The translations under genes were made by a program, and so were the position numbers. A stretch of 64,000 nt of DNA from Pirellulales bacterium (GTDB lineage: Bacteria; Planctomycetota; Planctomycetia; Pirellulales; PALSA-1355), in NCBI GenBank assembly GCA_022844125.1, contig JALHMI010000017.1, forward strand, positions 93,687-157,686, given 5' to 3'. Under the pieces are notes generated by a model, which saw nothing but the letters and a program-made list of their open reading frames with translations, did not search any database and was not told the origin of the DNA. Shown one piece after another: positions 25,454 to 50,115 of this stretch. Each line of letters opens with the position of its first letter. The stretch's first letter is position 1.

Positions 25454-25707
25454 CGGCACCAAGGGGCACACTTAAAGAGGCTCCCTTAGCACTCCCCATC
25501 GCTCCTTCAATCTAGAAAAGGGCCGACAAGCTTACTGGAAAACTTGCCGACCCTAAGTTGTCCGTAATCCATTTCAGGCTTCCCGCCATGGGACAACTTG
25601 TTCGATAAAAGCTCGGGGGCCGATACGCGACTGTCACTAACGAAGAAAACCAGTCGCGCATCAAACGTGGTTCACAAGGCCCCGTTGCCCCCGAGCGTCT
25701 CGCGTCT

Positions 25708-26016: not shown

Positions 26017-26129
26017 AGAGTTCTCTCCGGCTGATGAGTCCCTTAGATCGTATCGCTTGAGCTTGGCACGAGACGCGGCGGCTAGTCTCCTTTGCCGCCG
26101 CGTGTCTCGCACCGCTCGACTTCGTGACT

Positions 26130-26528: not shown

Positions 26529-26539
26529 TTTGATTTTCC

Positions 26540-27076
26540 TTAAACTGAAGCTGAATCGAATTGCCGTTGAATCTGTTTCAGACGAGCATCCGTCTCCGCA
26601 ACAGATTGACTAATGCGTTCCTGGCGTTCTTCTTGCCACGTCTTCGGGGTGAGGCGTCGAACTACTCGCTCCAGGCTTGAGACCATCACTTGGACTTCGG
26701 CAACCTGCTTTGCGAGCCGTTCAAGCTCGTCAAGCTCGTCTGGTTGAATGGGCGGAATGTTGGCCGGAGAACCGGACGGACTGCCCATGCCTCGCAGCCA
26801 AGATTGTTGCTGCTGGATCGTGTCCCTGAGTCGCGTGTAGTCCTTGCTATAGCGGTCGCGACGTAGCGTCCAGAACTCAAGCTTGATCTTGAACCGACCA
26901 AGCTTGTCCTTCGGGGGCTCGCGAAAGTTGTAGTGGCCCATGTCGCCTTCACGAACTTGGGCACCATTCTGAAACACGATCCGCGTTCCACTGTTGCGGT
27001 TGATCTTTTCGTACTCGCAACCCTGACGCCCGGCGAACTCTTCAAACTCGTGACCAATCATTGTTGTTGCCCTCAT
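26540..27076 (-). CDS. Hypothetical phage-element protein
   Basis: 178-aa ORF whose ATG overlaps the TerL stop (ATGA at 27073-27076), suggesting translational coupling. Coiled-coil-like C-terminus. Confidence 0.5.
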   Translation of the reverse strand: MRATTMIGHEFEEFAGRQGCEYEKINRNSGTRIVFQNGAQVREGDMGHYNFREPPKDKLGRFKIKLEFWTLRRDRYSKDYTRLRDTIQQQQSWLRGMGSPSGSPANIPPIQPDELDELERLAKQVAEVQVMVSSLERVVRRLTPKTWQEERQERISQSVAETDARLKQIQRQFDSASV

Positions 27077-28665: not shown

Positions 28666-29057
28666 GTCGCCGCTCCTTCCAACCAGGGAGCACTACGCAT
28701 CTTCCGCTCTGTGCCGAGCATCCGAGCCAAGTTCGATAGAGTGTTGACGCCCACAATCCATCTCGACATCAACTCGGCCTTGGTCTTCGCATCAACGGTC
28801 GGATCGGCTAGTGAGACTTCAACGTTGGAAAGAGAAGCCTCAAGCCAAACGAACCGCTCAAGCATCGACGCTTTGATCTGGCTTAGATCGTCGAGCCCGC
28901 CAAGGTCGGTAGCGATGGAGTCGAAGCGTTCGCGAAGAGCACGAGCAAGCTCAGTGCGTCCGTCCAGCGAAGCAATGAAGCCCGCTTGGAACTTCGCCGG
29001 CAGCTCTTGCGGCTTGTTCTTGGCGTTCTTTCGCGTGCCTTGGCTGGTGCGAGGCAT
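28662..29057 (-). CDS. Putative terminase small subunit
   Basis: 131-aa basic N-terminus protein immediately upstream of terL, overlapping it by ATGA. The call rests mainly on position and size. Confidence 0.45.
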   Translation of the reverse strand: MPRTSQGTRKNAKNKPQELPAKFQAGFIASLDGRTELARALRERFDSIATDLGGLDDLSQIKASMLERFVWLEASLSNVEVSLADPTVDAKTKAELMSRWIVGVNTLSNLARMLGTERKMRSAPWLEGAAT

Positions 29058-29116
29058 TGTCCGTACCTATAGCTCGGATGACTAGCATTAATCCTCCCTA
29101 TAGTGTACGTACGTTC

Positions 29117-29177
29117 ACGTTGTAAAGTAAAGGTATCTAGCGGGTATTTTTAAGGCCCACCGGGGCAGTGCTTTACG
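29117..29177. promoter_or_regulatory. Regulatory repeat block L (GTAAAG ... TAGCGGG ... CGGGGCAG ... CTTTACG) upstream of the terminase operon
   Basis: The same ordered motifs recur at 30078-30153, upstream of the resolvase operon. Confidence 0.5.
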
Positions 29178-29184
29178 TGTCGTC

Positions 29185-29775
29185 CTACGCTTTAAGAACG
29201 GAGTAGATCGTCGGTCGAGAGAGGCCTACGGCAGCAGCGATAGCCGTGATCTGCTCTCCGTCCTTACGCATCGCCTTGATGGCCTTGAGTTGCGTATCGG
29301 TTACACGCTTCCGAACACCAGGCAGCGACCCGCCCCATCGTTTGCCTTGTGCTTTTGCTTTCGCTTGTCCCGCTGCTACTCGCTCGCCTCGCACTTCCGT
29401 CTCGTATTGAGCGACAGACGCCAAGACGTTCGCCATCAGTCGCCCTGCGGGTGTGCTAAGGTCGAGCCCGTCCTTGAGCGAGACTAGGTTCACCTTCCGC
29501 TCTCTCAACTCATCGAACAGAGCGGTGAGCCCCTTAGCCGTGCGGCCTAGTCGATCTATTCGCCACACAACCACAGCCGAGACTCGGCCTTGTCGTATCG
29601 CTGCTTCTAGCTTGCTCCAGGCGGGTCGATCCATGCTCTTGCCGCTCGCCTTATCGCGGTAGTACACGACGGGAAGGTCTTGAGCATCGGCCCATCGCTC
29701 CAGATCAGGCTCCTGTGACTTCGTCTCCTGTACCGCAGTCGAGACTCGTAAATAGATCGCAACGTATTTGCCCAT
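29185..29775 (-). CDS. Small serine recombinase (resolvase/invertase type) with C-terminal HTH
   Basis: 196 aa. VAIYLRVSTAVQETKSQ catalytic motif, VVVWRIDRLGRT, and a C-terminal HTH ITAIAAAVGLSRPTIYSVL. Confidence 0.85.
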   Translation of the reverse strand: MGKYVAIYLRVSTAVQETKSQEPDLERWADAQDLPVVYYRDKASGKSMDRPAWSKLEAAIRQGRVSAVVVWRIDRLGRTAKGLTALFDELRERKVNLVSLKDGLDLSTPAGRLMANVLASVAQYETEVRGERVAAGQAKAKAQGKRWGGSLPGVRKRVTDTQLKAIKAMRKDGEQITAIAAAVGLSRPTIYSVLKA

Positions 29776-29777
29776 GA

Positions 29778-29981
29778 CTAGTTCCTCTCAGCAGCACGTT
29801 TAGCTTTTGCAATCTTCACCGAGCGATCCAACACGTGGTTGGCGTAGTCCTCCCAGTGGACCCCAAGGGAATAGGCAGCCTGCGGACTCTCGCCCCTAGG
29901 CAACACGTGTTGGGCTTCTTCCAAGCTAGTGGGAAGGTCCAAGTCCTCGGCCACGTTGGACCACCATTGCTCAAACGTCAT
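29778..29981 (-). CDS. Hypothetical small protein
   Basis: 67-aa ORF ending 2 nt upstream of the resolvase start, probably in the same operon. Confidence 0.4.
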   Translation of the reverse strand: MTFEQWWSNVAEDLDLPTSLEEAQHVLPRGESPQAAYSLGVHWEDYANHVLDRSVKIAKAKRAAERN

Positions 29982-30048
29982 CGCAGTTCTCCGGTTAGCG
30001 TAGTGAACATATGGCCACTACCTAGAGTCTAGCGTTTACCACACGTGT

Positions 30049-30153
30049 CGTAAAGGACGATCTACTAACGAGCCTTTACGAACGTAAAGTAGCGGGATCG
30101 GCACTATTCGCCGGGTTCTAGCGGGGCAGCCGGAGGGAGAGTGAAACTTTACG
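30049..30153. promoter_or_regulatory. Regulatory repeat block R, including the perfect palindrome CTTTACGAACGTAAAG (30074-30089)
   Basis: CGTAAAG at 30049, the palindrome at 30074-30089, TAGCGGG, CGGGGCAG, and CTTTACG at 30147. Confidence 0.5.
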
Positions 30154-30217
30154 CCCAGAGGTTTCGAGCGGAGCGGCTCGGGTAGGGGCTGATCGGGAAG
30201 AGAGGTTAGGGAGCGGC

Positions 30218-31276
30218 CTAAGACTCAGCGAGATCACACTGCCCTAAGCGCAATACGAAGTCCGCATTGAACTGCTCAACGGATTTGATCCGATCTACAG
30301 CGACAACGAAATTGACATTTGGGACTTTTAGAAGCTTCTGTGACGTAGTTGCTCCTCCAAAGATTCCATCAAATGGATGAGAGTACCACTTAAGCCAACT
30401 GGCCAATGTGGTTCTCGAAATGGACCCCAACGTACAGAAGAACACATAGTGCTCGGACTTTTTGATAGAGTCTCTCATACCGTCATCCAGATCACGCCAC
30501 ATGTAGTACTGCATCCAGTCTTGAAATTCCTTCTTCTTGAGGGCAGGCATGAAGACAATTACAACCTGCTGATACTTCCCGCCCACGAGCTTGTATCTGA
30601 ACGCCGAGTCTGCAAAGCGAAGCTCTTGACCATCAAATCTTAGAAAGCCAAGCCGCTCAAGAATGGCTTTCCCCGCCTCAATAATCCCTTCGGACTTTCG
30701 ATACATTGGTAGCGTATAGAACGCCGATTCGGCTTCACGCTTTTGGCTATCCAACGCTCGTTGGCGAAGTAGCGGACGGAGAACGTGGTTGAGCCGAGAC
30801 TTTAGCCGTTGGCGGAACGCCTCATTGGGGCTCGTCCACCAAATTATATTCTTCATCTGGAGGTCGAAGTGGATCTTTCGGTTGCCATGCTCGTCATCGT
30901 CTCTTGGTCGCGAGTGATCGCCGCGAGCGATGTAGATCACGGGTTTCCCGCTCGCAAAGGCATATCCAGCTTCGTAGTACACGGATGGCCTAGCGTAAGT
31001 CAGATCGGCTATGCAAAGGTCAGACGCATCTAGCAACTCCATGATCTTGTCGTCTATGTCGTCGTTATGCTCCGTTCGGTTTACCCGCAAGGGCTGAATG
31101 TCCATCTCGCGAAGAAGCTTTTTAACTACTTTGTCATAGATCGCGTCCACGTCATCCCAGTCGAACGCACTAGCGATAAAGCATTTCAGTTTCACGCCGG
31201 GACTCCCACCATTGCGAAGGGTAAGCAAACCACCATAATATTGACAACTCCCGCTAAGTGCCAAGAGCTGATTTGG
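30218..31276 (-). CDS. Nucleoside 2-deoxyribosyltransferase-like / TIR-like (Rossmannoid) domain protein with an unknown C-terminal domain
   Basis: ORF 30218..31336. Possible starts are ATG 31336, 31309 and 31276, or GTG 31195 (preceded by GGGAG). N-terminal KLKCFIASAFDWDD ... DLCIADLTYARPSVYYEAGYAFASGKPVIYI matches the NDT/DUF1863-type motif layout. Confidence 0.6.
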   Translation of the reverse strand, partial: PNQLLALSGSCQYYGGLLTLRNGGSPGVKLKCFIASAFDWDDVDAIYDKVVKKLLREMDIQPLRVNRTEHNDDIDDKIMELLDASDLCIADLTYARPSVYYEAGYAFASGKPVIYIARGDHSRPRDDDEHGNRKIHFDLQMKNIIWWTSPNEAFRQRLKSRLNHVLRPLLRQRALDSQKREAESAFYTLPMYRKSEGIIEAGKAILERLGFLRFDGQELRFADSAFRYKLVGGKYQQVVIVFMPALKKKEFQDWMQYYMWRDLDDGMRDSIKKSEHYVFFCTLGSISRTTLASWLKWYSHPFDGIFGGATTSQKLLKVPNVNFVVAVDRIKSVEQFNADFVLRLGQCDLAES

Positions 31277-31326
31277 CATCCGTGGTCCTACACCGTCGTT
31301 CCAGCTCATCAGGAGAGATCGAACAA

Positions 31327-32025
31327 ATGGCAACAATCGTGTGGATCATCCTCTTGATTGTGACTTTCGTATGGACGCTTTCCTCCAGACTCATCTACAA
31401 CCTCGCAATTGCTCCCTTCGAGCCCGCATTGCGTCAGTGGTTGTTCTTCAAAGCTCCAGTGAGGCTTCTTAATCGCATCGTACTCTCAGCGGTCAAAGGA
31501 GCCGTCAACGGGCGAACCCACGCAGACGCAATGTTTGAGTTGGTCACGATCCGCATCTTCGTGGTCTTCCTGCCTATGTTGCTTATGTTCGGCCTCGCTG
31601 CCGGTCTAGCCGATATGTCCATTGAGAACCTAAATGCGAAGCTAGGCATTGTGGTCGAAGAAGCCCCGGCTCTGACGCCAGAGCAAGAACTGGAGCGTAT
31701 AACCTTCAAGAGCCGCTTCTATCGAACGCTGATCGGCATCGGGATAGTATTGATGTTTGGGAGCTTCGCTCTGTCGTCATTCGCCAGCATGCGCTCTCGC
31801 ATGTCGTTTACTCACCAGAGAACCATGAGCAAGCTCCAGCCCTTTCTGACTCCGGAGGAACTTCACGAATTGATGATTGTCGAGCACGGCGTACATACCG
31901 ACGCGGCTACCTACCGATACATCTCCGCAGTTCAACGCATGACAGACGCCCACGGCCTGTCCGACATTGCGCATATCTGGCCCCGTCGCCTTGTTCCTAA
32001 TCAAACTGTTGCCGACCAAGGCTAA
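31327..32025 (+). CDS. Hypothetical 3-TM membrane protein
   Basis: ATG at 31327 preceded by AGGAGAG. TM segments IVWIILLIVTFVW, IFVVFLPMLLMFGLAAGLA and LIGIGIVLMFGSFALSSFA. Divergent from the NDT/TIR-like gene. Confidence 0.6.
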   Translation: MATIVWIILLIVTFVWTLSSRLIYNLAIAPFEPALRQWLFFKAPVRLLNRIVLSAVKGAVNGRTHADAMFELVTIRIFVVFLPMLLMFGLAAGLADMSIENLNAKLGIVVEEAPALTPEQELERITFKSRFYRTLIGIGIVLMFGSFALSSFASMRSRMSFTHQRTMSKLQPFLTPEELHELMIVEHGVHTDAATYRYISAVQRMTDAHGLSDIAHIWPRRLVPNQTVADQG

Positions 32026-32285
32026 TCGTCCTCCGTGAACGGCTCTCCGTTCAAAATCTTCGTGTAGGCTTTCTCCAACGAGCGGGAGAACTGAACAAAG
32101 TTTCGCATCTCAGTTAAGTCGATCCCCTTCAAACCGAGAGCCAAAAGCCGCTCGCCTAACTCTAGACTAGGCTCGACCCTCGCCAAACTGGCCCGAATCT
32201 GTTCAAGGAACTCGCGTATCTCATCGTCGCTGATCCGTTCCCAATCGAGCATGCCCTCTACGTGATCTTCATGGAAGTCAACCAT
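32022..32285 (-). CDS. Hypothetical small acidic protein
   Basis: 87-aa ORF overlapping the stop of the TET/JBP-like gene by 8 nt. It is the last gene of the leftward operon. Confidence 0.45.
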   Translation of the reverse strand: MVDFHEDHVEGMLDWERISDDEIREFLEQIRASLARVEPSLELGERLLALGLKGIDLTEMRNFVQFSRSLEKAYTKILNGEPFTEDD

Positions 32286-33129
32286 TGCGTCTCCTCAGTC
32301 GCATAAGTTCCTCCGATCCCAAGTTGCCGCACGTCTGAAGCCTCTCACGGAAATACATCACCGTGGAGATACGCTCCCAGCCTGGCTCGCCGATGATCGG
32401 CGTGTTTCCGTGGTACTCGTGAACGTCCGCGAGCAACACGTCTCGGTCCCGAAGATCCACCGCCACTCGATACTGGGGAAATACCAAGAGCCCACCGCTG
32501 TAGTTTCCCGAGCGGAGAACGCTCATAACGCCAAACCCAGCAGCCAAGTCGTTCTTGTCGGTATGAACGCGAGTCCGAAGGTTTCGATTCACCGTGACGG
32601 TCGTGAAAACCGTATTTGGTATTACGAAGTCTTTCGCAGTTCGTGCGACTACTTCCGCCTGGGCCGCGTAACGTTCAGGCAACTCCGATTTGAATATCAG
32701 ATTGGCCGCCTGAGCATAGGCGATGATTCGACTGTAGCCGGCCAAATCTGAGCGGGTGAATGCGGTAGCTCGACACGTCGGCTCGCGGCGACTGCGGCCG
32801 AAGTAGCCCACGATGCCGCTCTCAGCAGCGATCGCAGGCCGCGTCTTCTTGAACTTTCCGTCCGGCCCACGTTTCTCGGGCTGGAGCCCAGCCACCGTTG
32901 CCCGGTTATACGTGACCCTGGCCGCTCTCCGCAGTGCCGGCAGGGCTCGGGTCGAGATATCCTCCGGCATCGCCGCATGGCGGTACACCAACAGCGGAGA
33001 GCCGTCTGGCTTGAGCACCGTCGTATCTTCGCCGGTCACTAAATAATCAAAGCCCCGTTCTATGAACTTGCCTTCGAGTTTCTTCACGTCCTTGTCGAGC
33101 ATCGAGCCGAGTAGCCGGATCAGTTTCAT
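32278..33129 (-). CDS. TET/JBP-family 2OG-Fe(II) dioxygenase-like protein
   Basis: ATG at 33129 overlaps the upstream stop (ATGA). HxD motif RVHTDKND, then GGLLVFPQYRVAVDL..DVLLADVHEYHGNTPI (distal His) and RISTVMYFR (Arg), matching the Tet_JBP motif order. Confidence 0.6.
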   Translation of the reverse strand: MKLIRLLGSMLDKDVKKLEGKFIERGFDYLVTGEDTTVLKPDGSPLLVYRHAAMPEDISTRALPALRRAARVTYNRATVAGLQPEKRGPDGKFKKTRPAIAAESGIVGYFGRSRREPTCRATAFTRSDLAGYSRIIAYAQAANLIFKSELPERYAAQAEVVARTAKDFVIPNTVFTTVTVNRNLRTRVHTDKNDLAAGFGVMSVLRSGNYSGGLLVFPQYRVAVDLRDRDVLLADVHEYHGNTPIIGEPGWERISTVMYFRERLQTCGNLGSEELMRLRRRNG

Positions 33130-33677
33130 GGCTGCTGCCCTTTCTGGTGCTTGTCGTATGCCTCGCGTACGATCCGACAAACCGTCACGCCAGTCTTTTC
33201 AACCAAGGGATCATTAAGCTGTTCCATATGACGGTTGAATTCCCGGAAGAGTTCGACCGTGACCGGGAGTTTGATCTCCATTCCGTCTTCGTCTTCCCCT
33301 TCGTCCTTCTTATCTTTGCGACCTTTCGATGGTCCGGCGAGATGCGCTCTAATTACCTCAAGGCTCGCATCTTGAAGTTTCGCGGCTTCGATCTCAGGCC
33401 ACTTGCTCGCGACCTTCATGTACCATCTCGCCGTCACTGCCGACGCCTTGAAGTTTTTAGTGAGCCAATCACCCCACTCCCCATGCTCCAAGCGGCTCTT
33501 GGCTTCGTTTAATGCCTCTCCGGCTGCCCGCACATGCGCATTCGCTCCGGCCATGCGAGTCCGATACAGACCCTCATACGCTTGATGATTCTCGTTTGCT
33601 TGCTCGGCCAGTTCGGCCAGAGCGGCGGATTGGTCGGCCTCAAAACGAAGAACCCTTTTCGTTTTGTCGTCTGCCAC
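33126..33677 (-). CDS. DUF3102-like phage/plasmid regulatory protein
   Basis: 183 aa. HGEWGDWLTKNFKASAVTARWYMKVA resembles the DUF3102 signature (GxWxxWL...S.rtAqrYM). Confidence 0.5.
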   Translation of the reverse strand: MADDKTKRVLRFEADQSAALAELAEQANENHQAYEGLYRTRMAGANAHVRAAGEALNEAKSRLEHGEWGDWLTKNFKASAVTARWYMKVASKWPEIEAAKLQDASLEVIRAHLAGPSKGRKDKKDEGEDEDGMEIKLPVTVELFREFNRHMEQLNDPLVEKTGVTVCRIVREAYDKHQKGQQP

Positions 33678-33844
33678 TTCTGCGTACTCTCCAACTCGGC
33701 TCTCCTTGGGATCACCTTGTGCGATCCGCTACCTGGGTTATAGCCGTCGAAAACCAGCGCACTTTTCGAGCGTTTCCGATGCGAGAGACGAACGGCAGGC
33801 GAGGATCGACGTTTGTGAATTTGGGAAACGTCGCGTCCTAGACG

Positions 33845-34162
33845 CTAAGAGAGGCTTTCACGCCAAGCGGCTTGCTTGCACTTGGCTGAGCAGTACATCG
33901 CATCCCGGCGATGTCGCTTGAATGGCTTTCCGCACTGCTCACAGAAAGCCTTGCCCGAAAGCGGATCAACCGCTCGCTCTGCTTGGATCTCTTGCCGTCG
34001 ACGTTCGATGAACCCTTGTCGACGACATTCAGCCGAGCAGAACCGCTGGAGAGGATGAATGGGCGTGAAAGTTGAGCCGCAGTGCTCGCATCCTAAACGC
34101 TTAACGGTAACGGTTACCGCTCGTTGTTTAGGTTGTCGGCTTGTGGCTTTCTTGCGTGGCAT
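33845..34162 (-). CDS. Double zinc-ribbon protein
   Basis: ATG at 34162 (MPRKKATS). Two CxxCG...FCSxxC units (CEHCGSTF..FCSAEC and CEQCGKPF..YCSAKC). Confidence 0.5.
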   Translation of the reverse strand: MPRKKATSRQPKQRAVTVTVKRLGCEHCGSTFTPIHPLQRFCSAECRRQGFIERRRQEIQAERAVDPLSGKAFCEQCGKPFKRHRRDAMYCSAKCKQAAWRESLS

Positions 34163-34169
34163 GAGGTTG

Positions 34170-34433
34170 TTATAGCAAACCCAGGGCATCGGCCGCATCA
34201 GCTCTGGCATCTTCGATGATCTCGAACTGCCCTGCCGAAAATCTCGGCCCCTCGTCATCGGCGATGCACCACGCCCATTGATCGTTGCGGCGGTAGAGCG
34301 TCACTGTCACGCCCTCCCAGTGCCTCCAGTAGTTGCCCCTAGCTGATCGTCGCCAAGCGTCGGGGTTCTCAAAGTTTTGTCGTGCGGCTCTAGCCGCTTT
34401 GAGTTGTTGGGCTGCTTCGCTAAGTTTTGGCAT
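34170..34433 (-). CDS. Hypothetical small protein
   Basis: 87-aa ORF, first gene downstream of the 34497-34650 repeat array. No family recognised. Confidence 0.4.
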   Translation of the reverse strand: MPKLSEAAQQLKAARAARQNFENPDAWRRSARGNYWRHWEGVTVTLYRRNDQWAWCIADDEGPRFSAGQFEIIEDARADAADALGLL

Positions 34434-34496
34434 CGTCGTGTACCCTTAAAAATCGCGTCTATCCCGTCTGCCCCGCCTATCGACGCTCGGGCAATT

Positions 34497-34650
34497 CGTC
34501 CCGAAACCCTAGTTGTCGCGAACGTCTTACACGCTTTTCGACTACCCTTTCGGGACGGCAGAAATTGCGAGAATCTCCGTACTAGTGGGAGGAGTTTTAA
34601 GTACGTTTCGGGACGGATATTTTCTTCAAGCAAACTAGGGTTTCGGGACG
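34497..34650. promoter_or_regulatory. Iteron/operator-like array: 4 copies of TTTCGGGACG(G), with the outer two forming an 18-bp perfect inverted repeat
   Basis: CGTCCCGAAACCCTAGTT (34497-34514) pairs with AACTAGGGTTTCGGGACG (34633-34650). Direct copies sit at 34548-34558 and 34606-34616. Confidence 0.6.
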
Positions 34651-35336
34651 GTTTTTCGCCTACCGTCTTCAGAAAGCTCCCCACGCTGAAATGCCTGAAA
34701 GTAAGCGTCCATCGGATAAGGTTCGTCCTTCCATTCATCCCAGAAGCGACCAACCGTTGATTTGGAGATATTAAACAGCGCAGCCACTTCGCGGATTGAT
34801 TGTGTTTCGAGTGCCGTCAGCACTTCGGTTGTCAGCGGCCAAGCCAGTTGCGGCTTCCGTCCACAGCGGCCACTCCGTTTGGTCGCCTTGCTGTGCCTCT
34901 CAGATTCCGTGAGTGATGGGTGCTCGATGGTCACGAGCGGCACCCCATCGGCCATCTCCCAGAGCTTCTTCAACTCTTCGGACGTTGGCTCTGCGTTGAT
35001 GTTTGTCCAGTGATGATAACTGGCTGAGCGAATGAACCGCGACACGTCCCCACTAACTATCGGAACGTTGAACTTCTTCGCAGCACGCACTGCTTTCTGG
35101 AACAAGGGTCGATAATTGAGTTGCCCTCGCTCCACACCGGCGATTGTCATGCGCGCACGTCGTCCGAACGCAGATCGTATCGTCGCTTCGCCGTACTCTT
35201 GCTGCGTGACGAGGCTTTTAACTTGTCCAGGATTGTCGGAGCTGGCCCGGCAGTAGTGGATACACGCGGAAAAGTTTTCGGCCGCATCGGGCAGGAATAG
35301 AAACCCGGTATCGGGTAAACTAAGACTAGTGGACAT
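34635..35336 (-). CDS. Divergent resolvase-type serine recombinase homolog with C-terminal HTH
   Basis: 233 aa. IHYCRASSDNPGQ...TQQ aligns to the YxRVSxxxQ...Q motif and VPIVSGDVSRFIRS to lvVxxlDRlxRs. C-terminal GRCGRKPQL...SIREVAALFNISKSTVGRFW is HTH_7-like. Confidence 0.5.
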   Translation of the reverse strand: MSTSLSLPDTGFLFLPDAAENFSACIHYCRASSDNPGQVKSLVTQQEYGEATIRSAFGRRARMTIAGVERGQLNYRPLFQKAVRAAKKFNVPIVSGDVSRFIRSASYHHWTNINAEPTSEELKKLWEMADGVPLVTIEHPSLTESERHSKATKRSGRCGRKPQLAWPLTTEVLTALETQSIREVAALFNISKSTVGRFWDEWKDEPYPMDAYFQAFQRGELSEDGRRKTVPKP

Positions 35337-42274: not shown

Positions 42275-43243
42275 TTAGAGCGATCGCCTTCGCCGTCGGG
42301 CGACGAATATTGCGAGTAAGCCAAAGGAGGTCAACAGGCAGGTCGAGGGCTCAGGGACGAACGCCAAGCGGAAGCCAACACCGTCAATCTGGGTTGTCGG
42401 GTTGCCTTCGACCCAGTTCGAAGACTGCAAGTAGTCCAACCCGTTGCCGAACGAACCGCCCCGCACGGCACGAAATGACAAGCCGATGAGCTTTTCGTTC
42501 CACTCCCACACATTGCCGCCCTGGTCGAACGTGCCATAGTAGCTGTCTGAACCCGTGTAGGCACCGCCGATTGTCAAATCACCGACAACAGATAATTCAT
42601 AGTTGGCCGCGTTGCTGCCGCCGGGAGGAGCCTCGGCGGTCGGGGCCATATTACTGGCGGTCGGATAGAGCCAATAGTCGTCCGCATCACCACCTTGCGA
42701 GGCCGGCTGATGATAGGCCGCCTTATACCACTCGTCCTCGCTGGGCAGAAACCATGTCGCGCCGGTGTTGCGCTTAATGCTCCCGCCGTTGCTGGGCGTG
42801 GGCGTGCCGCCCAACAGGGTATACGCGCCGGTCTCCGTATCGCCCGATCCTTGGCCATTGTTCATCCAGTTGGCAAAGCGGATGGCGTCGTACCAGCTCA
42901 CATAGTTGACCGGCATGTTCTCCCGGCCGCTGATTGGCGCGTAGCTGTAGCTGCCGCTGGAGCCGCTACGAGTGATTCCGCCGTAGCCGCTACTCATGTT
43001 CGTGTTGTAGAGGGCTAGCGGATCGCTGGCGGCCTTGGCGTTGAGTAATGCTGCATACTGTGCGTTGGTGACTTCGGTCGTGCCGATGCGATAGTCGTAG
43101 CTGACCGCGCCGTACAGACCACCAGTCGATGGGTCAGGCGCGTTCCCCGCATTTCCAATCGGAACGGTGGGGATCGTGACAGCACATGCCGACTTGGCGG
43201 CAAGCAACAAGCCAAACAGACTCAGGACTGCGATGCGAATCAA
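42275..43243 (-). CDS. FGE-sulfatase (SUMF1/EgtB/PvdO) domain protein with a PEP-CTERM anchor
   Basis: Signal peptide. NVWEWNE and RGGSF motifs of the formylglycine-generating-enzyme fold. C-terminal VPEPSTCLL...RRRRR is PEP-CTERM. Confidence 0.75.
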   Translation of the reverse strand: MIRIAVLSLFGLLLAAKSACAVTIPTVPIGNAGNAPDPSTGGLYGAVSYDYRIGTTEVTNAQYAALLNAKAASDPLALYNTNMSSGYGGITRSGSSGSYSYAPISGRENMPVNYVSWYDAIRFANWMNNGQGSGDTETGAYTLLGGTPTPSNGGSIKRNTGATWFLPSEDEWYKAAYHQPASQGGDADDYWLYPTASNMAPTAEAPPGGSNAANYELSVVGDLTIGGAYTGSDSYYGTFDQGGNVWEWNEKLIGLSFRAVRGGSFGNGLDYLQSSNWVEGNPTTQIDGVGFRLAFVPEPSTCLLTSFGLLAIFVARRRRRSL

Positions 43244-43802
43244 TGGTCGAGCCCTCGACGCACAATGGGGGTAAAAAACAAACGCCGCTCAAATGCAAAC
43301 CCAGGTGCGCGAAGAGCGACAACCATGAGAAGGCAAATGAGCGACGTTTCAGTAGCGGACTTTGGCAAATGCTTTACGGAAGTAAAACTACCCACACATT
43401 ATAGGTTGCCGGGGGGGCAACCATTCCGCACGAGAAATCACAGCGGGTAGCACCGACAACTGCCGGTGTTGCGCAGCAACCGGAGGGCTCAAGCAGAGCG
43501 TCACGGTGTGGCAGGCATGACGGCAGAGTTCGCTCCGTCCTGAACCCTCTCGTGCCGGAGGCACCCTGACAAGCTGTCAGGGCCACCCGGGGTCGACGTC
43601 CCGCTCGATGTGTTATCAGTCGCAACGAAGCGCGAGCGACGCCTGCATTCCAGCGAACGTGCCTGTTGGTGGCCGTTTTCGCAAAAAGAAAAACGGCCAG
43701 TAGAAAACAGGCCAGTGTCTGTGCTAACTTCGCCTCAGACAACCTAATCCGTTGGGTATCAAGTAGAGCCCGCCGACACCATGCGGCCGGGTATCCGCAG
43801 GA

Positions 43803-43846
43803 GCCCGCTTCCGAAGCAATTTCGGCAGCGGGCTTTTTTCGTTTTT
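43803..43846 (+). terminator. Strong rho-independent terminator or attenuator immediately upstream of the toxin-locus RBS
   Basis: GCCCGC..CCGAA GCAAT TTCGG..GCGGGC followed by TTTTTTCGTTTTT. GGAGG at 43847 and ATG at 43859. Confidence 0.65.
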
Positions 43847-43858
43847 GGAGGTGACTGT

Positions 43859-44617
43859 ATGGCACGCGATGAATTGGATCCGCTTGACGATGAGCTGAGG
43901 CCGGAACCTGAAGTCGCCCCAGTACTTCCCGAAGAGACAGCGTTCAACGTCAGGGAAGCAGTCGAAGCGCCCACTGAAGTGGACGATGTCGAGCAAAACG
44001 CCAGCGGACCGGTGGTCTTCGAACAGGCAAGCGTCGAATCGGAGGGAGTCGTGCCTGCCGCTGCTGAATCAGAATCCCAGGACGTGCAAGCGGCACCCAA
44101 CCCCTACGACAACTTTGACAACCAGAAGGCGGTCGAGCGATTCTTCGAGGCGTACCGAGCCCAGCGGGCGGCCGAGCGCGCCGCGTCAGGTGAGAGCGAA
44201 GACGAAATGTTGCCGGCAGACGCTCCGCTGCGCCGCAAGGATGGTTTCTTCTACGCGGAACCTCGCAAGCTGCCGCCCCCGACGCCGTTTGAAGAACTGG
44301 TGTTTGGCTACAGCAAGAAACGCTCGCCGGAACCGACACCGGAGATTCAAGAGCGGTGGCTTCCGCCCGACTTTCTGCCCAAGGGTCCGCGATCGCAGCC
44401 GATCGGCGCCGCCGTTCCTGCGCCCGAGGGGGAAATCAAGGTGACCGTCGAGGTGCGGCTCACGGGCGAAGCGCGCGAGCGGATCACTGACCAGGCAATC
44501 GCCAAGGCAGCGCAGACCCACCAGAACCAGACCGAGATCGTCGCCAAGCGGCTCTATGAACTGACGCGTGAAATCCGCGATCGGGAAGCCGCACGTCGCG
44601 TTCTCTATCGGCGGTGA
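43859..44617 (+). CDS. Hypothetical acidic, Pro-rich protein (first gene of the toxin locus)
   Basis: ATG at 43859 after GGAGG. 252 aa. Its stop lies 4 nt before the toxin gene ATG. No family recognised. Confidence 0.55.
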   Translation: MARDELDPLDDELRPEPEVAPVLPEETAFNVREAVEAPTEVDDVEQNASGPVVFEQASVESEGVVPAAAESESQDVQAAPNPYDNFDNQKAVERFFEAYRAQRAAERAASGESEDEMLPADAPLRRKDGFFYAEPRKLPPPTPFEELVFGYSKKRSPEPTPEIQERWLPPDFLPKGPRSQPIGAAVPAPEGEIKVTVEVRLTGEARERITDQAIAKAAQTHQNQTEIVAKRLYELTREIRDREAARRVLYRR

Positions 44618-44621: not shown

Positions 44622-46073
44622 ATGATCTCGATCGATCCCCAGGCATCGCTCAAGTATTTCCGCACAATCGCGTCGCACACCGACCGCGATGTTCAGCGGC
44701 GGCTGGATCGCTTTCAGCGGTCGCTGGAGAGGTGGCTGCACAGTGCGCTTAACTGGCCGCAGGACGATTGGGAGTCCGACTTGCGCATGTTCGTCGAGCA
44801 CACGCGTTATGCGGGTTGGGAGATCTCACCGCATTCGCTGGCCAAGATTCGCGAGTTGCTGGAAGCGCGGGCGAAGCGGGCGGGGCCGTTCGCGGTGGCA
44901 ACTGGCGCGCGGAGCCACGAAGCCGACAAGCCAGAAATCCAGCTTGCCGCCGTGATGGCGCCCGGCGAAGACACGGACGCCACGCTGGACCTGACGAGCG
45001 AGGACGCGGAGCAAGTTGAAGAGTCAGTTGATCTGGAGGTGGCAGGTGAGGGGCCGGAGGTGTCGGAGTCGTTCAAGGCGAAGGTAAGGCTGACGCTTGA
45101 ATTACTCGATCCTGCTGTTTGTCGTTGGTGGCATGCGCCGAGCGTCGACGGGTTGATTCAGTCGCGCGATGCATGGGGGCCCCGACGTAATGTGATGAGC
45201 TACGTCGAAAATGACCGCCCGATCATTGTCGTCGACCAGAGCTTTACGGCGGGCGACACGGCGCTCGCGATTATCGACGAGGCGAGCTCGGGCCTGTTTG
45301 CGGATTCGATCGGCGCGCATTTGCGGAAGTACAAGATCGGTCGCGGGCGGAGTGTCGAGGAGTTCATTGCCTGGCGTAAGCAGTCAGCGCAGGAAGCCGC
45401 TGCTGAAGCAGCAAAGATTGCAGAGATCTACTACGGCGCGCTGGCATCGCTAACCCCTGCCGGCGAACTGGTCGTCACGCTCGACGACATCGATCGCAAT
45501 GGCGTGAGCTTGAGTCATGCGCTGATTCTGCTGCCAGGGATGGCCCTGCTCCGCGGACAAATCAAAGGGTTTGTTCTGAAGATCGCTGGCGGAAAGCCGC
45601 TCAGAGTATCTGAAGAATTGTTGAATAAGCTAAGCAAGTTGCCGAAAGCAACTCTGGAGAATCTGGTTGCCAAAGTTCGGAAGGCGAAGACCCCGGAAAA
45701 GGGCATCAAGATACTGCGGGATGGAGTCGAGGCTGCTGCAACTGAGCGTCGCTCTAGGAGTGCTACTGGCGCGGCCAAGGCGACCGCTCGCAAAGGGGGC
45801 CAGGTTCACCATGCAATCTCGGTACGAGTCCATAGAGCGTTGGAAAAACACAAGAGACTAAAGGGTAAATATAAGCCCCGCGACAAACGATTCGAGTATC
45901 AGGCCGTTAGCCTTGAGGCACATAATGGTTATGAGCACTGGCACATCGACCTTGATGCCGAGGTTGTAGAATGGCTTCGTGAAAATCAGGACGCAACAAC
46001 GGAAGTATTTGAAGGGTGGCTCGCCAAAAGATATAGGAAGCCCGACCTTGCTTGGCGGTTTAAAAGTAAATGA
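44622..46073 (+). CDS. Polymorphic toxin-like protein with a C-terminal HNH/EndoVII-fold (AHH-like) nuclease domain
   Basis: ATG at 44622. The central region (YYGALASLTPAGELVVTLDDIDRNGVSLSHALILLPG...) is repeated at 47957. The variable C-terminus carries QVHHAIS ... EAHNGYEHWH. Confidence 0.6.
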   Translation: MISIDPQASLKYFRTIASHTDRDVQRRLDRFQRSLERWLHSALNWPQDDWESDLRMFVEHTRYAGWEISPHSLAKIRELLEARAKRAGPFAVATGARSHEADKPEIQLAAVMAPGEDTDATLDLTSEDAEQVEESVDLEVAGEGPEVSESFKAKVRLTLELLDPAVCRWWHAPSVDGLIQSRDAWGPRRNVMSYVENDRPIIVVDQSFTAGDTALAIIDEASSGLFADSIGAHLRKYKIGRGRSVEEFIAWRKQSAQEAAAEAAKIAEIYYGALASLTPAGELVVTLDDIDRNGVSLSHALILLPGMALLRGQIKGFVLKIAGGKPLRVSEELLNKLSKLPKATLENLVAKVRKAKTPEKGIKILRDGVEAAATERRSRSATGAAKATARKGGQVHHAISVRVHRALEKHKRLKGKYKPRDKRFEYQAVSLEAHNGYEHWHIDLDAEVVEWLRENQDATTEVFEGWLAKRYRKPDLAWRFKSK

Positions 46074-46086: not shown

Positions 46087-47106
46087 GTGACTTTCTACAC
46101 CATCAAACAGTCAGACGATCACTCAGCGCTCACATATGCGTACGAATACAAAGCAGTGATGGGCGACGCGGAATCCTGTGAATTCTGCGGAGCATGCATC
46201 AGCCTTCTGACTTGGCAGCCACCGTTCCGCGTCGAACTCGAGATGATCGGCCGAGAGTTCTCCGACATCATCTTCGACATTGGCAACGGCCTGCTTTTGT
46301 CAGAACGAACCGTGCATTTGTGCCGCGATAATCGTCTGACAGGGTTAAAGGAGATCCATCCGGTCGAAGTCGTGAAGGTCAGATCTCGCTGGCGAAAGCG
46401 GCCCGAGCCCCCTAGATACTTTTATGCGCCGATCCAGCGGGGGCCGGCACGCGTTGACGTGGCTGCCTCGGGGATCGTGTGGCTTGCGCCGCCTGCTTGC
46501 CAACATTGCCTCGGCGCCAACAAAATGCGCTGGCAACGAGTCCAGTTGGAACCGAATACCTGGGGAGGCGAAGACATTTTTGCACCCATCGGCTTGTCCG
46601 GAACGATGATTATTTCGCCGCGGTTCAAGCAGATCTGTCAGCAGCACGAGCTGAAGAATGTCATGACGCTTCCGATCGAACAAGACTCTCACGATTTCTA
46701 TCCAGGGGTTAAGGACGGCAAGGAGTGGGCGCAGATTGTTGCGGAAGATAATGCGCCGCCGCCTGCCGACGACCAGGAAGCCCTGCATAGACTCGCCAAG
46801 GTCGCGCGGCTCGACATCGAACAGCTAATCACGCACTATTTGCACCTGCCCACCAAACGCGCTGCGAAGCGGGCACATATCGCCTTGTCCGCTCGCGACT
46901 TCGAAGTAGACGAGCCTTACAAGTTCTTTGCGAAATGGGGATTGCGAGTCCACACACGGCTCATCCCCGAGGAATCCGCCATCATCGAGCTCCGCCAGAT
47001 GTTCACCGAGATTGCCGAGGAGAACGACGGTACCTACGACCGCTGGGAAGCTGATCTCCGCACCGAAGAGCAGCGGGCACATGATCGCCAACGCGGCGGA
47101 TGGTAA
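46087..47106 (+). CDS. Putative immunity protein: double-CxxC(G) domain fused to an RraB-like domain
   Basis: In-frame GTG at 46087 (MTFYTIKQ). CEFCG and CQHCLG motifs resemble the myxobacterial double-CXXCG paralog family. The C-terminal THYLHLP...FTEIAEENDGTYDRWE resembles the RraB/DUF695 fold. Confidence 0.5.
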   Translation: MTFYTIKQSDDHSALTYAYEYKAVMGDAESCEFCGACISLLTWQPPFRVELEMIGREFSDIIFDIGNGLLLSERTVHLCRDNRLTGLKEIHPVEVVKVRSRWRKRPEPPRYFYAPIQRGPARVDVAASGIVWLAPPACQHCLGANKMRWQRVQLEPNTWGGEDIFAPIGLSGTMIISPRFKQICQQHELKNVMTLPIEQDSHDFYPGVKDGKEWAQIVAEDNAPPPADDQEALHRLAKVARLDIEQLITHYLHLPTKRAAKRAHIALSARDFEVDEPYKFFAKWGLRVHTRLIPEESAIIELRQMFTEIAEENDGTYDRWEADLRTEEQRAHDRQRGGW

Positions 47107-47113: not shown

Positions 47114-47462
47114 ATGCCTGACGATCGGGATGCAATTGATGCGCTCGGCACCGTCGCTCGACTCGACATCGAGCATGAAATCACTCACTTCTTGCATATG
47201 CCCACAGAGGATGCCGCGGAGCGAGTGAGAATCGCACTGACCGCGCGAGATTTCGTAGTCGATGACGTCTGGCTGATCTTCGGTACGTGGTGCGTCACGG
47301 TGCGCACCATACTTGTCCCTGAGGAATCCGCGATTGTCGAGCTGCGTCGTATCTTTACCGAGATCGCCGAAGAGAACGACGGCGAGTACGACGGCTGGGA
47401 AGGCCGATCTGCGCACGGAAGAACAAAAGGCCGAAGATCGTCGCAATGGCGGGATAGGTTGA
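47114..47462 (+). pseudogene. Second RraB-like domain gene, with an apparent 1-nt insertion near 47400
   Basis: MPDDRDAIDALGTVARLDIEHEITHFLHMP...EIAEENDGEYDGWE is paralogous to 46790-47106. Homology to the ADLRTEEQ... tail continues only in the +1 frame, ending at TGA 47460-47462. The unshifted frame runs on to 47650, antisense to the PNP fragment. Confidence 0.5.
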
Positions 47463-47472
47463 CCCGCCTGCG

Positions 47473-47958
47473 TCACAACCCCGCCACGATCCCGCGGATG
47501 ATCGCGCGGACTTTGGGGGCGGCGGTCGTGGCGACGTGCTCGACTTCGCTCGATTTGGCGCCGGACAGCGCTTCGGGACGGCATTCGTTGGTCACGACCG
47601 AGAGCGCCAGCACGCGCAGGCCGCATTGCCGGGCGGCGATCACCTCGTGAACCGTCGACATCCCGACGGCGTCCGCGCCCAGGCGGCGGAGCATCCGGTA
47701 TTCGGCGCGGGTTTCGTAGTTCGGGCCGAGGACGCCGACGTACACGCCGCGGTGAGCCACGAAGTCTTCGCGACGAGCAATGGTCGCTGCGGCATCAAGC
47801 AGCTCGGCGTCGAATAGCCGGCTCATGTCGGGGCAGCGGGTACCCAGCGAATCGTCGTGCTGGCCGATCAAGGGGCCGTCGAACGTGAAGTTGATCTGAT
47901 CTTCGACCAGCATCAGATCGCCGACGCGATAGTGGGGATTCATCCCGCCGCAAGCGTT
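47473..47958 (-). pseudogene. Duplicated 3' fragment (about 160 codons) of the purine nucleoside phosphorylase gene
   Basis: Near-identical nucleotide copy of about 49294-49779 including the stop region. It ends abruptly at ...GCAAGCGTT, where toxin homology begins. Confidence 0.85.
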
Positions 47959-48580
47959 GTACTACGGCACGCTGGCCTCGCTGGCACCAGGTGGCGACCT
48001 GGTCGTCACGCTCGACGACATTGATCGCAATGGCGTGAGCTTGAGTCATGCGCTCGTTCTGCTACCGGCGCTGGCCAGTCTTGGCAGAAGGGGGACTGGG
48101 CTCGTCCTACAGATTACTGGGGGAAGAGCTTTTCGGGTACCGAAGGAGTTACTCGAGAAGCTTGTCAAGTTGCCCAAAAAGGCTCTGGACAAACTAGCCG
48201 CGAAGGTTCGGCATGCAAAGACCCCAGAAGAAGCCATCGATATACTCGATGGTCACGTTAAGCGGGTACACGGGCACCATATCGCCACCGACAAAAACTG
48301 GGTATCACCGCTACGTGGCGGTCCTTGGTCGCCGCGATTCGCAGAGATTTTTGAACGCGCGGGCATGACACTGACGGATGCAGAGAACGTTGTCAAGCTT
48401 CCTGGACATAAAGGTCCACATTCAGAGCAATACCACAGGCGAATCTACACCCTTCTTAAGACCGCTACAGATGGCAAGCGGGGGGCGACGTACAAGAAGG
48501 CGCTGGTAGACGAGTTGAAGCGAATTGCTAAAGAAGTTAAGACGAAAGGAACGGAGCTCAACCGGCTTCTATTCGAGTAA
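47957..48580 (+). CDS. Orphan polymorphic-toxin C-terminal cassette (AHH-type HNH/EndoVII nuclease)
   Basis: Begins, with no ATG, exactly at the conserved YYGTLASLAPGGDLVVTLDDIDRNGVSLSHAL segment. The C-terminus has GHHIATDKN ... LPGHKGPHSEQYH, an AHH-like motif pair. Confidence 0.6.
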   Translation: MYYGTLASLAPGGDLVVTLDDIDRNGVSLSHALVLLPALASLGRRGTGLVLQITGGRAFRVPKELLEKLVKLPKKALDKLAAKVRHAKTPEEAIDILDGHVKRVHGHHIATDKNWVSPLRGGPWSPRFAEIFERAGMTLTDAENVVKLPGHKGPHSEQYHRRIYTLLKTATDGKRGATYKKALVDELKRIAKEVKTKGTELNRLLFE

Positions 48581-48585
48581 CGATC

Positions 48586-49161
48586 ATGTCGGAATATATG
48601 AAATACTTTGAGGTGCAAGAGGAGTTGACGCTCCACGCCGACCAATGGTTTCTCAGGCGTCCGAGATCCGCAACTGGCGAGGTGCTGTACCCAGACGAAT
48701 TCACTGTGGGAGTGCCGTACACTGGTCCCGTTCCAGTGACATTGGAGATTGGACAGAAGGGCAAGGAGGTGCAGTTCCATCTAGCGGCCTTCAGTATGCC
48801 GGTCGTTTCACGAAAGATCGCGAATATTATTCGTAGCATCGCTCCCGGTCATGCAGAGTTCTTCCCCGTCGACATCGTTGGAGCTGAAAACAAATACGAA
48901 ATCATGAATGTCACTTGTCTTATAGACAGCCTGGACGAGGACAAGTCGGATTTTACAGTTTGGAAAGAAGAAGACGGACGACCTGACTTAGTCGGCCAGT
49001 ACCAAATGATTTTACAGGCACGCATTGACGGTAGCCGAGCGGCGCGGCATCCAATCTTCAGGCTGTCAAAGTTCAGCGTATCCTTGTTTGTCTCCGAGCA
49101 GATTCAGCAGGAACTTGAAGATAGGCCCAATCTGGGGGTCAAGTTCATTGATGCTAGCTAG
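48586..49161 (+). CDS. Imm11/DUF1629-like immunity protein
   Basis: 191 aa, 5 nt after the orphan toxin stop. The layout (PVVSRKIANIIRSIAPGHAEFFPVDI ... YEIMNV ... IFRLSKFSVSLFVSEQIQQELE) fits the DUF1629 pattern. Confidence 0.55.
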   Translation: MSEYMKYFEVQEELTLHADQWFLRRPRSATGEVLYPDEFTVGVPYTGPVPVTLEIGQKGKEVQFHLAAFSMPVVSRKIANIIRSIAPGHAEFFPVDIVGAENKYEIMNVTCLIDSLDEDKSDFTVWKEEDGRPDLVGQYQMILQARIDGSRAARHPIFRLSKFSVSLFVSEQIQQELEDRPNLGVKFIDAS

Positions 49162-49293: not shown

Positions 49294-50115
49294 TCACTCC
49301 CCTGCCACAATCCCGCGGATAATCGCGCGGACTTTGGGAGCGGCGGTGGTCGCGACGTGCTCGACTTCGCTCGATTTTGCGCCGGACAGCGCTTCGGGAC
49401 GGCATTCGTTGGTCACGACCGAGAGCGCCAGCACGCGCAGGCCGCATTGCCGGGCGGCGATCACTTCGTGAACGGTCGACATCCCGACGGCGTCGGCGCC
49501 CAGGCGGCGAAACATCCGGTACTCAGCCCGCGTTTCGTAATTTGGTCCGAGCACGCCGACGTACACGCCGCGGTGAGCCACGAAGTCTTCGCGACGAGCA
49601 ATGGTCGCGGCGGCATCAAGTAGCTCGCGATCGAAAGGACGGCTCATGTCGGGGCAGCGGGTACCCAGCGAGTCATCGTGCTGACCAATCAAGGGGCCGT
49701 CGAACGTGAAGTTGATCTGATCTTCGACCAGCATCAGATCGCCGACGCGATAGTCGGGATTCATCCCGCCGCAAGCGTTCGAAATGATCATGGACTTGAC
49801 GCCGAGCTCGCACAGCACGCGCACCGGGAAGGCGATCTGCGCGGCCGAGTGCCCCTCGTAGCCGTGACAGCGGCCGGCCATCGCCACGATCGGCACGCCC
49901 GCGATGCGACCGAGAATCAGCAGCCCGCGATGCGTGGGCGCGGTCGGCGCGACGAAGCCAGGAATCTCTTCGTACGGCAGCTCGAGCAGCGACTCGATTT
50001 CGTGCGCGAAGTCGGAAAGGCCGGTGCCGAGAATGATCCCCACGCGCGGACGCGGATGCCCGTGAGCCCCGATGGCTGCGGCGGCGCGCTCGACCTGCTG
50101 GCTGATCGAATCCAT
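49294..50115 (-). CDS. Purine nucleoside phosphorylase (PunA/trimeric PNP family)
   Basis: 273 aa. GIILGTGLS, HRGLLILGRIAGVPIVAMAGRCHGYEGH, NACGGMNP and MSTVHEVIAARQCGL are PNP-I family motifs. Confidence 0.85.
   Translation of the reverse strand: MDSISQQVERAAAAIGAHGHPRPRVGIILGTGLSDFAHEIESLLELPYEEIPGFVAPTAPTHRGLLILGRIAGVPIVAMAGRCHGYEGHSAAQIAFPVRVLCELGVKSMIISNACGGMNPDYRVGDLMLVEDQINFTFDGPLIGQHDDSLGTRCPDMSRPFDRELLDAAATIARREDFVAHRGVYVGVLGPNYETRAEYRMFRRLGADAVGMSTVHEVIAARQCGLRVLALSVVTNECRPEALSGAKSSEVEHVATTAAPKVRAIIRGIVAGE

Follow-up and report, generated by a model that had tools for sequence, protein, structure and literature searches.

The window analyzed here is a 64,000-nucleotide (nt) stretch from a Pirellulales bacterium (Planctomycetota; assembly GCA_022844125.1, contig JALHMI010000017.1, forward-strand positions 93,687 to 157,686). 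It contains a putative polymorphic toxin cassette in which a promoter-like element is followed by a structured leader RNA with an intrinsic terminator, a partner gene, a toxin gene, and a candidate immunity gene (Table 1). The toxin is a 483-amino-acid (aa) open reading frame (ORF) at 44622–46073 (+), and the partner is a 252-aa protein that begins MARDELDPLDDE... and ends in VLYRR before its stop codon. Coordinates and frame were re-checked, and the two ORFs, the acidic, proline-rich character of the partner, and the 4-nt gap described in a first-pass annotation of this DNA were all found again: the partner stop codon TGA is followed by GCCC and then by the toxin ATG at 44622. Both ORFs are real genes with conserved homologs in at least 25 other loci. 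Statements about the family draw on 221 profile matches, 169 mapped proteins, and 26 loci for the genomic neighborhoods.

Table 1. Features of the toxin cassette and its downstream flank, in window coordinates.
Feature	Position	Strand	Remarks
Promoter-like extended −10 (TGcTAACTT)	43722–43730	+	Predicted from upstream-region alignment; −35 weak in the window
Conserved structured leader RNA	43746–43843	+	P1/P2 plus intrinsic terminator
Partner	43859–44617	+	Acidic, Pro-rich, disordered; ends in a ~65-aa domain (beta-strand IKVTVEVRL plus long helix)
Ndom	44622–44915	+	Toxin aa 1–98; basic, isoelectric point (pI) 9.8; three-helix domain
Acidic low-complexity linker	44916–45032	+	Toxin aa 99–137; D+E 33%; predicted local distance difference test (pLDDT) <50
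Core module	45033–45356	+	Toxin aa 138–245; alpha-alpha-beta-beta-beta-alpha-alpha in the AlphaFold model; pLDDT 70–85
Pre-toxin junction (pretox)	45357–45737	+	Toxin aa 246–372; YYGALASLTPAGELVVTLDDIDRNG...; joint for C-terminal swapping
Variable linker and QxHHAIS C-terminal domain	45738–46073 (incl. stop)	+	Toxin aa 373–483; presumed toxin
Cognate immunity candidate	46087–47106	+	Imm11-like double-CxxC domain fused to RraB; predicted start codon
Second RraB-domain ORF	47114–47650	+	RraB 4.3e-13; 3' end enters the PNP fragment in antisense, true end uncertain
3' fragment of a purine nucleoside phosphorylase (PNP) gene	47473–47943	−	Duplicated flank marking the cassette junction
Displaced orphan toxin C-terminus	47957–48580	+	Pre-toxin remnant plus AHH; no Ndom
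Imm11 immunity gene of the orphan cassette	48586–49161	+	PF07791, 8.8e-13

The presence of export signals and known domains was investigated in both proteins. The toxin has no hydrophobic N-terminus (within the first 41 aa, no 12-residue segment averages above 0.17 on the Kyte–Doolittle scale). Reading upstream from the toxin ATG in frame, a stop is reached at 44562 after only 19 non-hydrophobic codons, so an alternative start cannot supply a signal peptide; toxin homologs also share the start MI(S/A)IDPQ. The first-pass annotation had allowed for a true start elsewhere that adds such a peptide, and this was not borne out. On whole proteins, Pfam at E ≤ 1 gave no match for the toxin N-terminal region or the partner, nor for the N-terminal region of any of the 12 first-round homologs, and at E ≤ 10 no match was obtained with each module alone (Ndom, core, pretox, and the partner C-domain). 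NCBIfam, PADLOC, and PHROGs matched no part of the first ~390 toxin residues and no part of the partner. Profile comparison of Ndom, the core, and the C-terminus with PDB sequences returned chance matches only, and Foldseek of the AlphaFold model of aa 1–372 against PDB and BFVD returned nothing at E < 0.09. LXG, WXG100, PAAR, Rhs/YD, TPS, MafB-N, and DUF4157 were without a match in the toxin N-terminal region, and no description of the modules or the partner turned up in the literature. The first-pass claims that this region holds no recognizable trafficking domain and that delivery is not among the catalogued mechanisms agree with these searches, in which profile methods detected no known secretion domain and no catalogued domain of another kind. 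Together with the conserved coupling to the partner described below, this points to a delivery mechanism outside current catalogues.

The first homology search returned 11 relatives with ~370 N-terminal residues in common, after which the sequences diverged abruptly; the C-termini found on this same N-terminal region were AHH, Tox-REase-5, QxHHAIS, and GIY-YIG-like. A profile of the shared region gave 221 matches against 1.84 billion representatives, and it was split into three hidden Markov models (HMMs; Ndom, core, and pretox), which were mapped on 169 proteins. The N-terminal region, for which the first-pass annotation gave ~270 aa, is conserved over ~372 aa and comprises three separable modules. 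The exact toxin of the window had no entry in the contig index. The linker between Ndom and the core differed in length and composition among homologs.

The HMM census located Ndom in 98 representatives, where it always started within ~35 residues of the N-terminus. The family motif reads LPxDW(R/E)..., G..V.P.S..LE.WIE.WA..GLLP, for which the window has LNWPQDDWE...GPFA. Nearly two thirds of the representatives (64/98) carried Ndom without the core and pretox modules, and ten such proteins that were inspected had a WHH nuclease, Tox-REase-2, an Rhs-end fragment with an HExxH domain, or a transmembrane-rich central module. Being conserved, strictly N-terminal, and placed ahead of many different toxins, Ndom behaves as trafficking domains do, which contradicts the first-pass view of an N-terminus devoid of any trafficking-type feature. 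The AlphaFold model of Ndom contains three helices, of which the first is 39 residues long (pLDDT 35–74).

The partner has a pI of 4.65 and contains 10.7% proline and 20.2% D+E. AlphaFold predicted a single continuous helix of ~48 residues at aa ~203–250 (pLDDT 89–96), which supports the C-terminal helical segment noted earlier, and disorder in the remainder. Close homologs of the partner share contigs with toxin homologs, and in distant loci the upstream ORF encodes a protein of 240–350 aa with a pI of 4.1–4.9, ~10% proline, and no signal peptide. A C-domain of ~65 residues was conserved, consisting of ...SDGGPPLARPIVLV plus the helix in one clade and of EGEIKVTVEVRL plus the helix in the clade of the window. 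A profile search with this domain returned 9 proteins, and in 17 loci (the window, L001–L005, L007, L008, L010, L012, L013, L015, L017–L019, L022, and L025) its HMM (partC) matched the ORF that immediately precedes the Ndom gene. With a divergent copy of the domain upstream of the Ndom gene in L014, the total came to ~18 of 24 loci, so that the coupling to an acidic, proline-rich partner, first proposed for the window, is conserved across the family. Many partner-linked toxins lacked core and pretox, and the partner was kept whatever the downstream toxin. Pairwise identities of Ndom and of the partner domain were correlated over 16 pairs (r = 0.84, Mantel p < 2e-4); partner type thus tracks Ndom type, which would fit co-evolution. 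The two are also complementary in charge and shape, with a basic Ndom and its 39-residue first helix facing an acidic partner and its ~48-residue helix. In L003, a second cassette (15874–17274) consisted of a divergent 346-aa partner, the leader RNA, and an Ndom gene that starts at 17121 and runs off the contig.

Much as in the LXG–Lap1/Lap2 (type VIIb) and PE/PPE (ESX) systems, the toxin here is leaderless and starts with a helical domain, a helical partner is encoded directly upstream, the two appear to co-evolve, and both can be separated from the cargo. The locus could accordingly be read as encoding a highly divergent type VII (WXG100/LXG) substrate, with Ndom as a shortened LXG-like domain and the partner as a Lap-like protein, exported by YueA/EssC-like ATPases of the "mobile" type VII secretion system (T7SS) reported for some planctomycetes. 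The helical Ndom, the helical partner just upstream, the absence of signal peptides, and the logic of a folded pair agree with such a reading, as does the planctomycete occurrence of solo WXG proteins alongside a YueA-like ATPase that was reported earlier (Zhang et al. 2012, Table 1, note 6; PMC3482391). However, the same study confined T7SS-neighborhood toxins to firmicutes, actinobacteria, and chloroflexi (PMC3482391), and the present host is a diderm planctomycete. Sequence and profile similarity to the LXG and ESX pairs was lacking: WXG100 (PF06013) and LXG (PF04740) did not match Ndom or the partner C-domain at E ≤ 10, and no WxG, LxG, or YxxxD/E motif was present in the alignments. At 98 aa, Ndom is half the size of LXG (~200 aa), and the partner is long (240–350 aa), acidic, and disordered, with one helix at its end, rather than a small helical hairpin. 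No FtsK/HerA-type ATPase, the EssC/YueA FtsK type included, recurred within ±10 kb of the 26 loci. We consider type VII export of this kind quite unlikely.

The pattern of beta-strand, helix, turn, and helix at the partner C-terminus looks ribbon-helix-helix-like by eye, and most loci have a GTGGCC box ahead of the promoter, which together raise the possibility that the partner is a transcriptional regulator of the operon. Against this, the partner C-domains had no match to RHH, Arc, or CopG in Pfam at E ≤ 10, and the model shows one continuous 48-residue helix instead of two short ones; the ribbon-helix-helix assignment was rejected on these two grounds. An acidic, disordered N-terminal region of 200–300 aa is likewise unlike such repressors, and the partner co-varies with Ndom. 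A regulatory role of this type is very unlikely.

The core and pretox modules also occurred without Ndom. In P0082 and P0093 they lie directly after Rhs DPxGL ends, and elsewhere they were found deep within large PKD or beta-helix proteins, followed by glutamine deamidase (Gln_amidase) or Tox-MPTase4; these contexts indicate cargo-side modules. The window protein itself differs from Rhs/YD toxins in having neither YD repeats nor DPxGL. Within the predicted fold of the core, the helix TAxAIIxE occupies the place of HExxH in a minimal zincin, and the window reads AIIDE (AIIDEASSG). HExxH was kept in only one of 48 core sequences, P0041 (HELRH, in AIVHELRHGH), which suggests an active zincin peptidase as the ancestor of the core. 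Glu220 is invariant in this module. Foldseek matches of the core to MATCAP, SprT, and IrrE were weak and non-significant. As nothing reached E < 0.09, the zincin relationship is a suggestive lead that draws on model topology, P0041, and these scattered matches. Unlike DUF4157/zincin pre-toxin peptidases, the window core does not read HExxH and has no Pfam match.

The C-terminal domain of the toxin belongs to a set of at least eight proteins (including P0003, P0009–12, P0041, and P0076) in which QxHHAIS...WH is conserved. Pfam searches with eight QxHHAIS domains and searches of PDB gave no family match. Membership in AHH was considered and rejected, since hhalign against the AHH alignment gave a probability of 0.1% and PF14412 did not match. 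The domain may be an undescribed toxin domain. The candidate immunity protein encoded directly downstream matched RraB in Pfam at 2.1e-10 and Imm11 at only 0.032, and homologous double-CxxC proteins are encoded directly downstream of toxins in L002, L003, L005, L008, and L012. Going by this position and homology, it is a candidate for neutralizing the toxin C-terminus.

Further downstream, joined directly to the duplicated PNP fragment, lies a displaced orphan cassette (47957–49161; 47473–49161 with the fragment) whose toxin fragment matched AHH (PF14412) at 6.3e-18 and the pretox HMM at 8.5e-40. Its start (47960–48076) is 86% identical to toxin DNA at 45429–45545, which marks the pre-toxin DNA as the recombination joint, and the stretch 47479–47958 is 93% identical to the downstream PNP gene (49299–49779). 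The orphan cassette is the record of a past replacement of C-terminus and immunity gene. The syntenic locus L001 occupies the same chromosomal site and carries Tox-REase-5 with a downstream Imm52 instead. High intergenic conservation between the window and L001 was also noted and was set aside as the genome-wide baseline of two close relatives; the real signal in the intergenic regions came from distant loci.

These observations place the locus among polymorphic toxin systems (Rhs, contact-dependent inhibition, MafB, and LXG; PMC3482391). It shares with them a constant N-terminus with recombining C-terminal toxins, an immunity gene immediately downstream (Imm11-like or Imm52), a displaced orphan toxin/immunity cassette, a pre-toxin junction that serves as the recombination joint, and several loci per genome. 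The feature of such systems that is absent is a catalogued N-terminal trafficking domain or signal, as judged by Pfam, NCBIfam, and the start-site check. In contrast to those systems, there is no signal peptide, TPS, PAAR/VgrG, LXG/WXG/LDXD, MafB-N, or SpvB here, nor PVC-metallopeptidase/DUF4157, MuF, or PrsW, and Ndom, the partner, the core, and the pre-toxin junction have no Pfam families. The toxin logic is familiar, while the libraries searched hold no description of Ndom, the partner, the core, the pre-toxin junction, the QxHHAIS domain, or the RNA leader.

The first-pass annotation had offered, as an alternative, that the pair acts inside the cell as a nuclease of the abortive-infection type. 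More broadly, the locus could be an intracellular toxin–antitoxin or abortive-infection module in which the partner or the leader RNA serves as regulator or antitoxin and is set free when phages attack. Neither the toxin nor the partner has an export signal, a toxin gene with a terminator-bearing RNA element just in front of it is reminiscent of type III toxin–antitoxin systems, and an acidic partner could mimic nucleic acid. These likenesses are outweighed by the swapping of C-termini between relatives (AHH, Tox-REase-5, WHH, Tox-REase-2, metallopeptidase, and deamidase) while the partner stays constant; a partner that is constant across changing toxins cannot be a specific antitoxin. Imm11-like and Imm52 are polymorphic-toxin immunity families, a displaced orphan C-terminus/immunity cassette is present, and the core and pretox modules of this toxin are also placed after Rhs DPxGL ends and after surface-type PKD/beta-helix regions. 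In P0012, the same QxHHAIS C-terminus stands behind a lipoprotein signal, so the domain is used outside the cytoplasm elsewhere. The leader RNA is a single-copy element rather than a repeat array, and PADLOC had no match for the partner, toxin, or immunity protein, giving only one weak hit (mad4, 8e-4) on the orphan fragment. Searches of phage, plasmid, and IMG/VR viral contigs found no occurrence of the family, and PHROGs was empty. An intracellular module is highly improbable and is the least supported of the alternatives considered, and for this protein "nuclease" is at most a putative label, given that QxHHAIS has no Pfam or PDB family and that hhalign does not link it to AHH.

All 11 loci located in species-representative genomes lay in Planctomycetota metagenome-assembled genomes (MAGs; 11/11). 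Individual genomes held several loci, the MAG JANNQN01 at least four, and L014 lies in the complete 7.8-Mb CAWDFN010000001. Across the 26 loci, the recurring families were the partner, the Ndom toxin, and the Imm11-like double-CxxC immunity protein, along with the leader RNA. DUF7133 and EF-G neighbors also recurred and look like synteny among related genomes. In three Pfam-annotated neighborhoods, no PAAR, VgrG, Hcp, DUF4123, DUF1795, or DUF2169 was found. The layout nevertheless resembles that of type VI cargo effectors (MIX, FIX, and RIX), where a modular N-terminal marker precedes many unrelated toxins, an accessory gene (DUF4123/Tap-1, DUF1795/Eag, or DUF2169) lies immediately upstream, and cassettes sit away from the machine cluster; it differs in that the toxin and partner match no adaptor family and that VgrG, PAAR, and Hcp are not nearby. 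The mafA-mafB-mafI and sitB-sitA-sitI operons share the order of accessory, toxin, and immunity genes, the multiple copies, and the polymorphic C-termini, but MafB and SitA have Sec or lipoprotein signals and MafA and SitB belong to the envelope, whereas neither protein has a signal here.

A leaderless toxin with a tightly spaced immunity gene, a swappable C-terminus, and no secretion genes nearby is also what would be expected of a colicin- or pyocin-like bacteriocin released by lysis or leakage, with Ndom as a receptor-binding or translocation domain and the partner as a co-released accessory or stabilizer. HNH-type C-termini (AHH and WHH) are typical of colicin-like bacteriocins, and the leader terminator would be in keeping with expression that is tightly repressed until induced. 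Yet no lysis or release gene was present in any of the 26 loci, and the receptor and translocation regions of colicins are central or disordered, compared with the strictly N-terminal 98-aa helical domain found here. Ndom is moreover found together with Rhs-end fragments and with transmembrane-rich modules, as is typical for effectors that a machine delivers, and several paralogous loci per genome fit effector sets better than bacteriocins. Release as a bacteriocin is, in our estimation, unlikely.

The region upstream of the cassette genes was compared across loci. Alignment of 13 upstream regions showed, in most, a GTGGCC box and a sigma70-like promoter made up of a −35 element TGACA, a spacer of 17–18 nt, and TGnTAnnnT. 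A perfect hairpin, GGCCGTTTTCGCAAAAAGAAAAACGGCC, at 43671–43698 overlaps the GTGGCC box and was seen only in the window and L001. The leader RNA that follows contains the helices P1 and P2 and then, across loci, a GC-rich stem of 11–25 bp with a U-run, after which the Shine–Dalgarno sequence and the start codon come 12–55 nt on. In the window, P1 is formed by GGGUAUC (43754–43760) pairing with GGUAUCC (43790–43796) around hairpin P2, the terminator stem spans 43800–43833, the U-run spans 43834–43846, and the Shine–Dalgarno sequence GGAGG lies at 43847–43851. The local fold of the window copy had an energy of −35.2 kcal/mol (z = −3.0), and the copy scored 67 bits (E 8.5e-15) against covariance model R1.

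Structure was assessed by RNAalifold and pair counting. Over 19 loci, 91.8% of cells were paired and 17 pairs showed compensatory change, with a covariation score of 0.43; shuffles gave 0.22 and slid controls no more than 0.18. The covariance model found 19 copies at E < 1e-12 in 381 kb, all directly upstream of a partner or Ndom gene and in the same orientation (others include L001 9142–9239, L003 8343–8455 and 16972–17078, L008 8727–8839, and L021 9846–9962). Six of the copies were outside the training set; five of these preceded partner-less Ndom genes, and the sixth lay between the second partner and the second Ndom gene in L003. No Rfam family (Rfam 15) matched the leader. Like transcription-attenuating leaders and riboswitches, it has a two-helix element followed by a strong terminator 12–55 nt before the start codon and pairing kept by compensatory changes; unlike them, it lacks an Rfam match and a clearly definable anti-terminator and is tied to one toxin gene family. 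Sequence and predicted structure make the leader a candidate for an attenuator or riboswitch that is confined to this toxin family.

We interpret the locus, with a probability of about 0.5, as a polymorphic inter-bacterial toxin cassette in which Ndom is an uncatalogued leader and the partner an adaptor or co-substrate for Sec-independent export provided in trans. In the proposed mechanism, the basic Ndom would bind the long C-terminal helix of the acidic partner, and the complex would form the recognition unit that passes the toxin, folded and without a leader, on to a Sec-independent machine whose genes lie elsewhere in the genome, by analogy with the LXG–Lap or PE–PPE pairs of type VII systems and with adaptor-dependent type VI cargo effectors. 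The core and pre-toxin modules would travel with the cargo and probably come into play once the toxin has been exported, during processing or target entry. The swappable C-terminal toxin would be neutralized by the downstream immunity protein, new C-terminus/immunity cassettes would recombine in at the pre-toxin DNA and leave the old one behind as an orphan, and the leader terminator would hold the operon off until a signal permits read-through.

Several points weigh against an Ndom–partner pair exported in trans. The Ndom model is of low confidence, ~6 of the 24 Ndom genes lack a neighboring partner gene, and the second cassette of L003, in which the partner lies upstream of the leader RNA, indicates that the partner is not obligatorily co-transcribed. 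The co-variation of Ndom and partner could be nothing more than co-inheritance of adjacent genes. The presumed toxicity of the QxHHAIS domain is assigned to a domain that matches no family, and the toxin family is known from MAGs and metagenomes only. Finally, no secretion-machine gene recurred within ±10 kb of the 26 loci, an absence which, with only partner, toxin, immunity, and leader recurring, also fits a cassette served in trans.

Taken a step further, Ndom and the acidic partner might be the substrate-recognition pair of an undescribed Planctomycetota export pathway, either a new substrate class or a new machine, with the leader as a new riboswitch-like or factor-dependent attenuator that gates the toxin arsenal; we put this forward tentatively, as a possibility less likely than the cassette interpretation itself. 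Planctomycetes abound in the environment and have an unusual cell envelope. To our knowledge, next to nothing is known of the ways in which they fight competitors or export proteins that have no leader. Four searchable modules and an RNA element, none of them in Pfam or Rfam, now mark a toxin arsenal and offer handles for phyletic profiling of the machine, for annotating hundreds of "hypothetical" toxin genes, and for testing a candidate new attenuator RNA. Should the pair define a new route, it would add a class to the modes of toxin trafficking and possibly provide a protein-export tag for the phylum.

Other features of the window were noted at varying distances from the cassette. Between a sugar ABC transporter and the cassette, 42275–43243 (−) encodes a PEP-CTERM-anchored FGE-sulfatase-domain protein that is absent from this position in the syntenic L001. 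An 872-aa HerA-like ATPase (DUF87 plus HerA_C) with a long coiled-coil-like C-terminal tail is encoded at 11480–14098 (−), 30 kb from the toxin locus, and nothing ties it to that locus. A lower-GC (0.51–0.57) mobile element at 23235–35336, also absent from syntenic L001, encodes a large serine recombinase, a resolvase, a TerL-like ATPase, a Tet/JBP 2OG-Fe dioxygenase, and a nucleoside 2-deoxyribosyltransferase-like protein, and it may be a prophage remnant with DNA-modification genes. The Rfam small RNA Acido-Lenti-1 matched 11110–11155 (+) with 44.5 bits, and close to it a 54-nt stretch at 10953–11004 (−) is 83% identical to 43444–43493, upstream of the cassette, and may be a short dispersed repeat.

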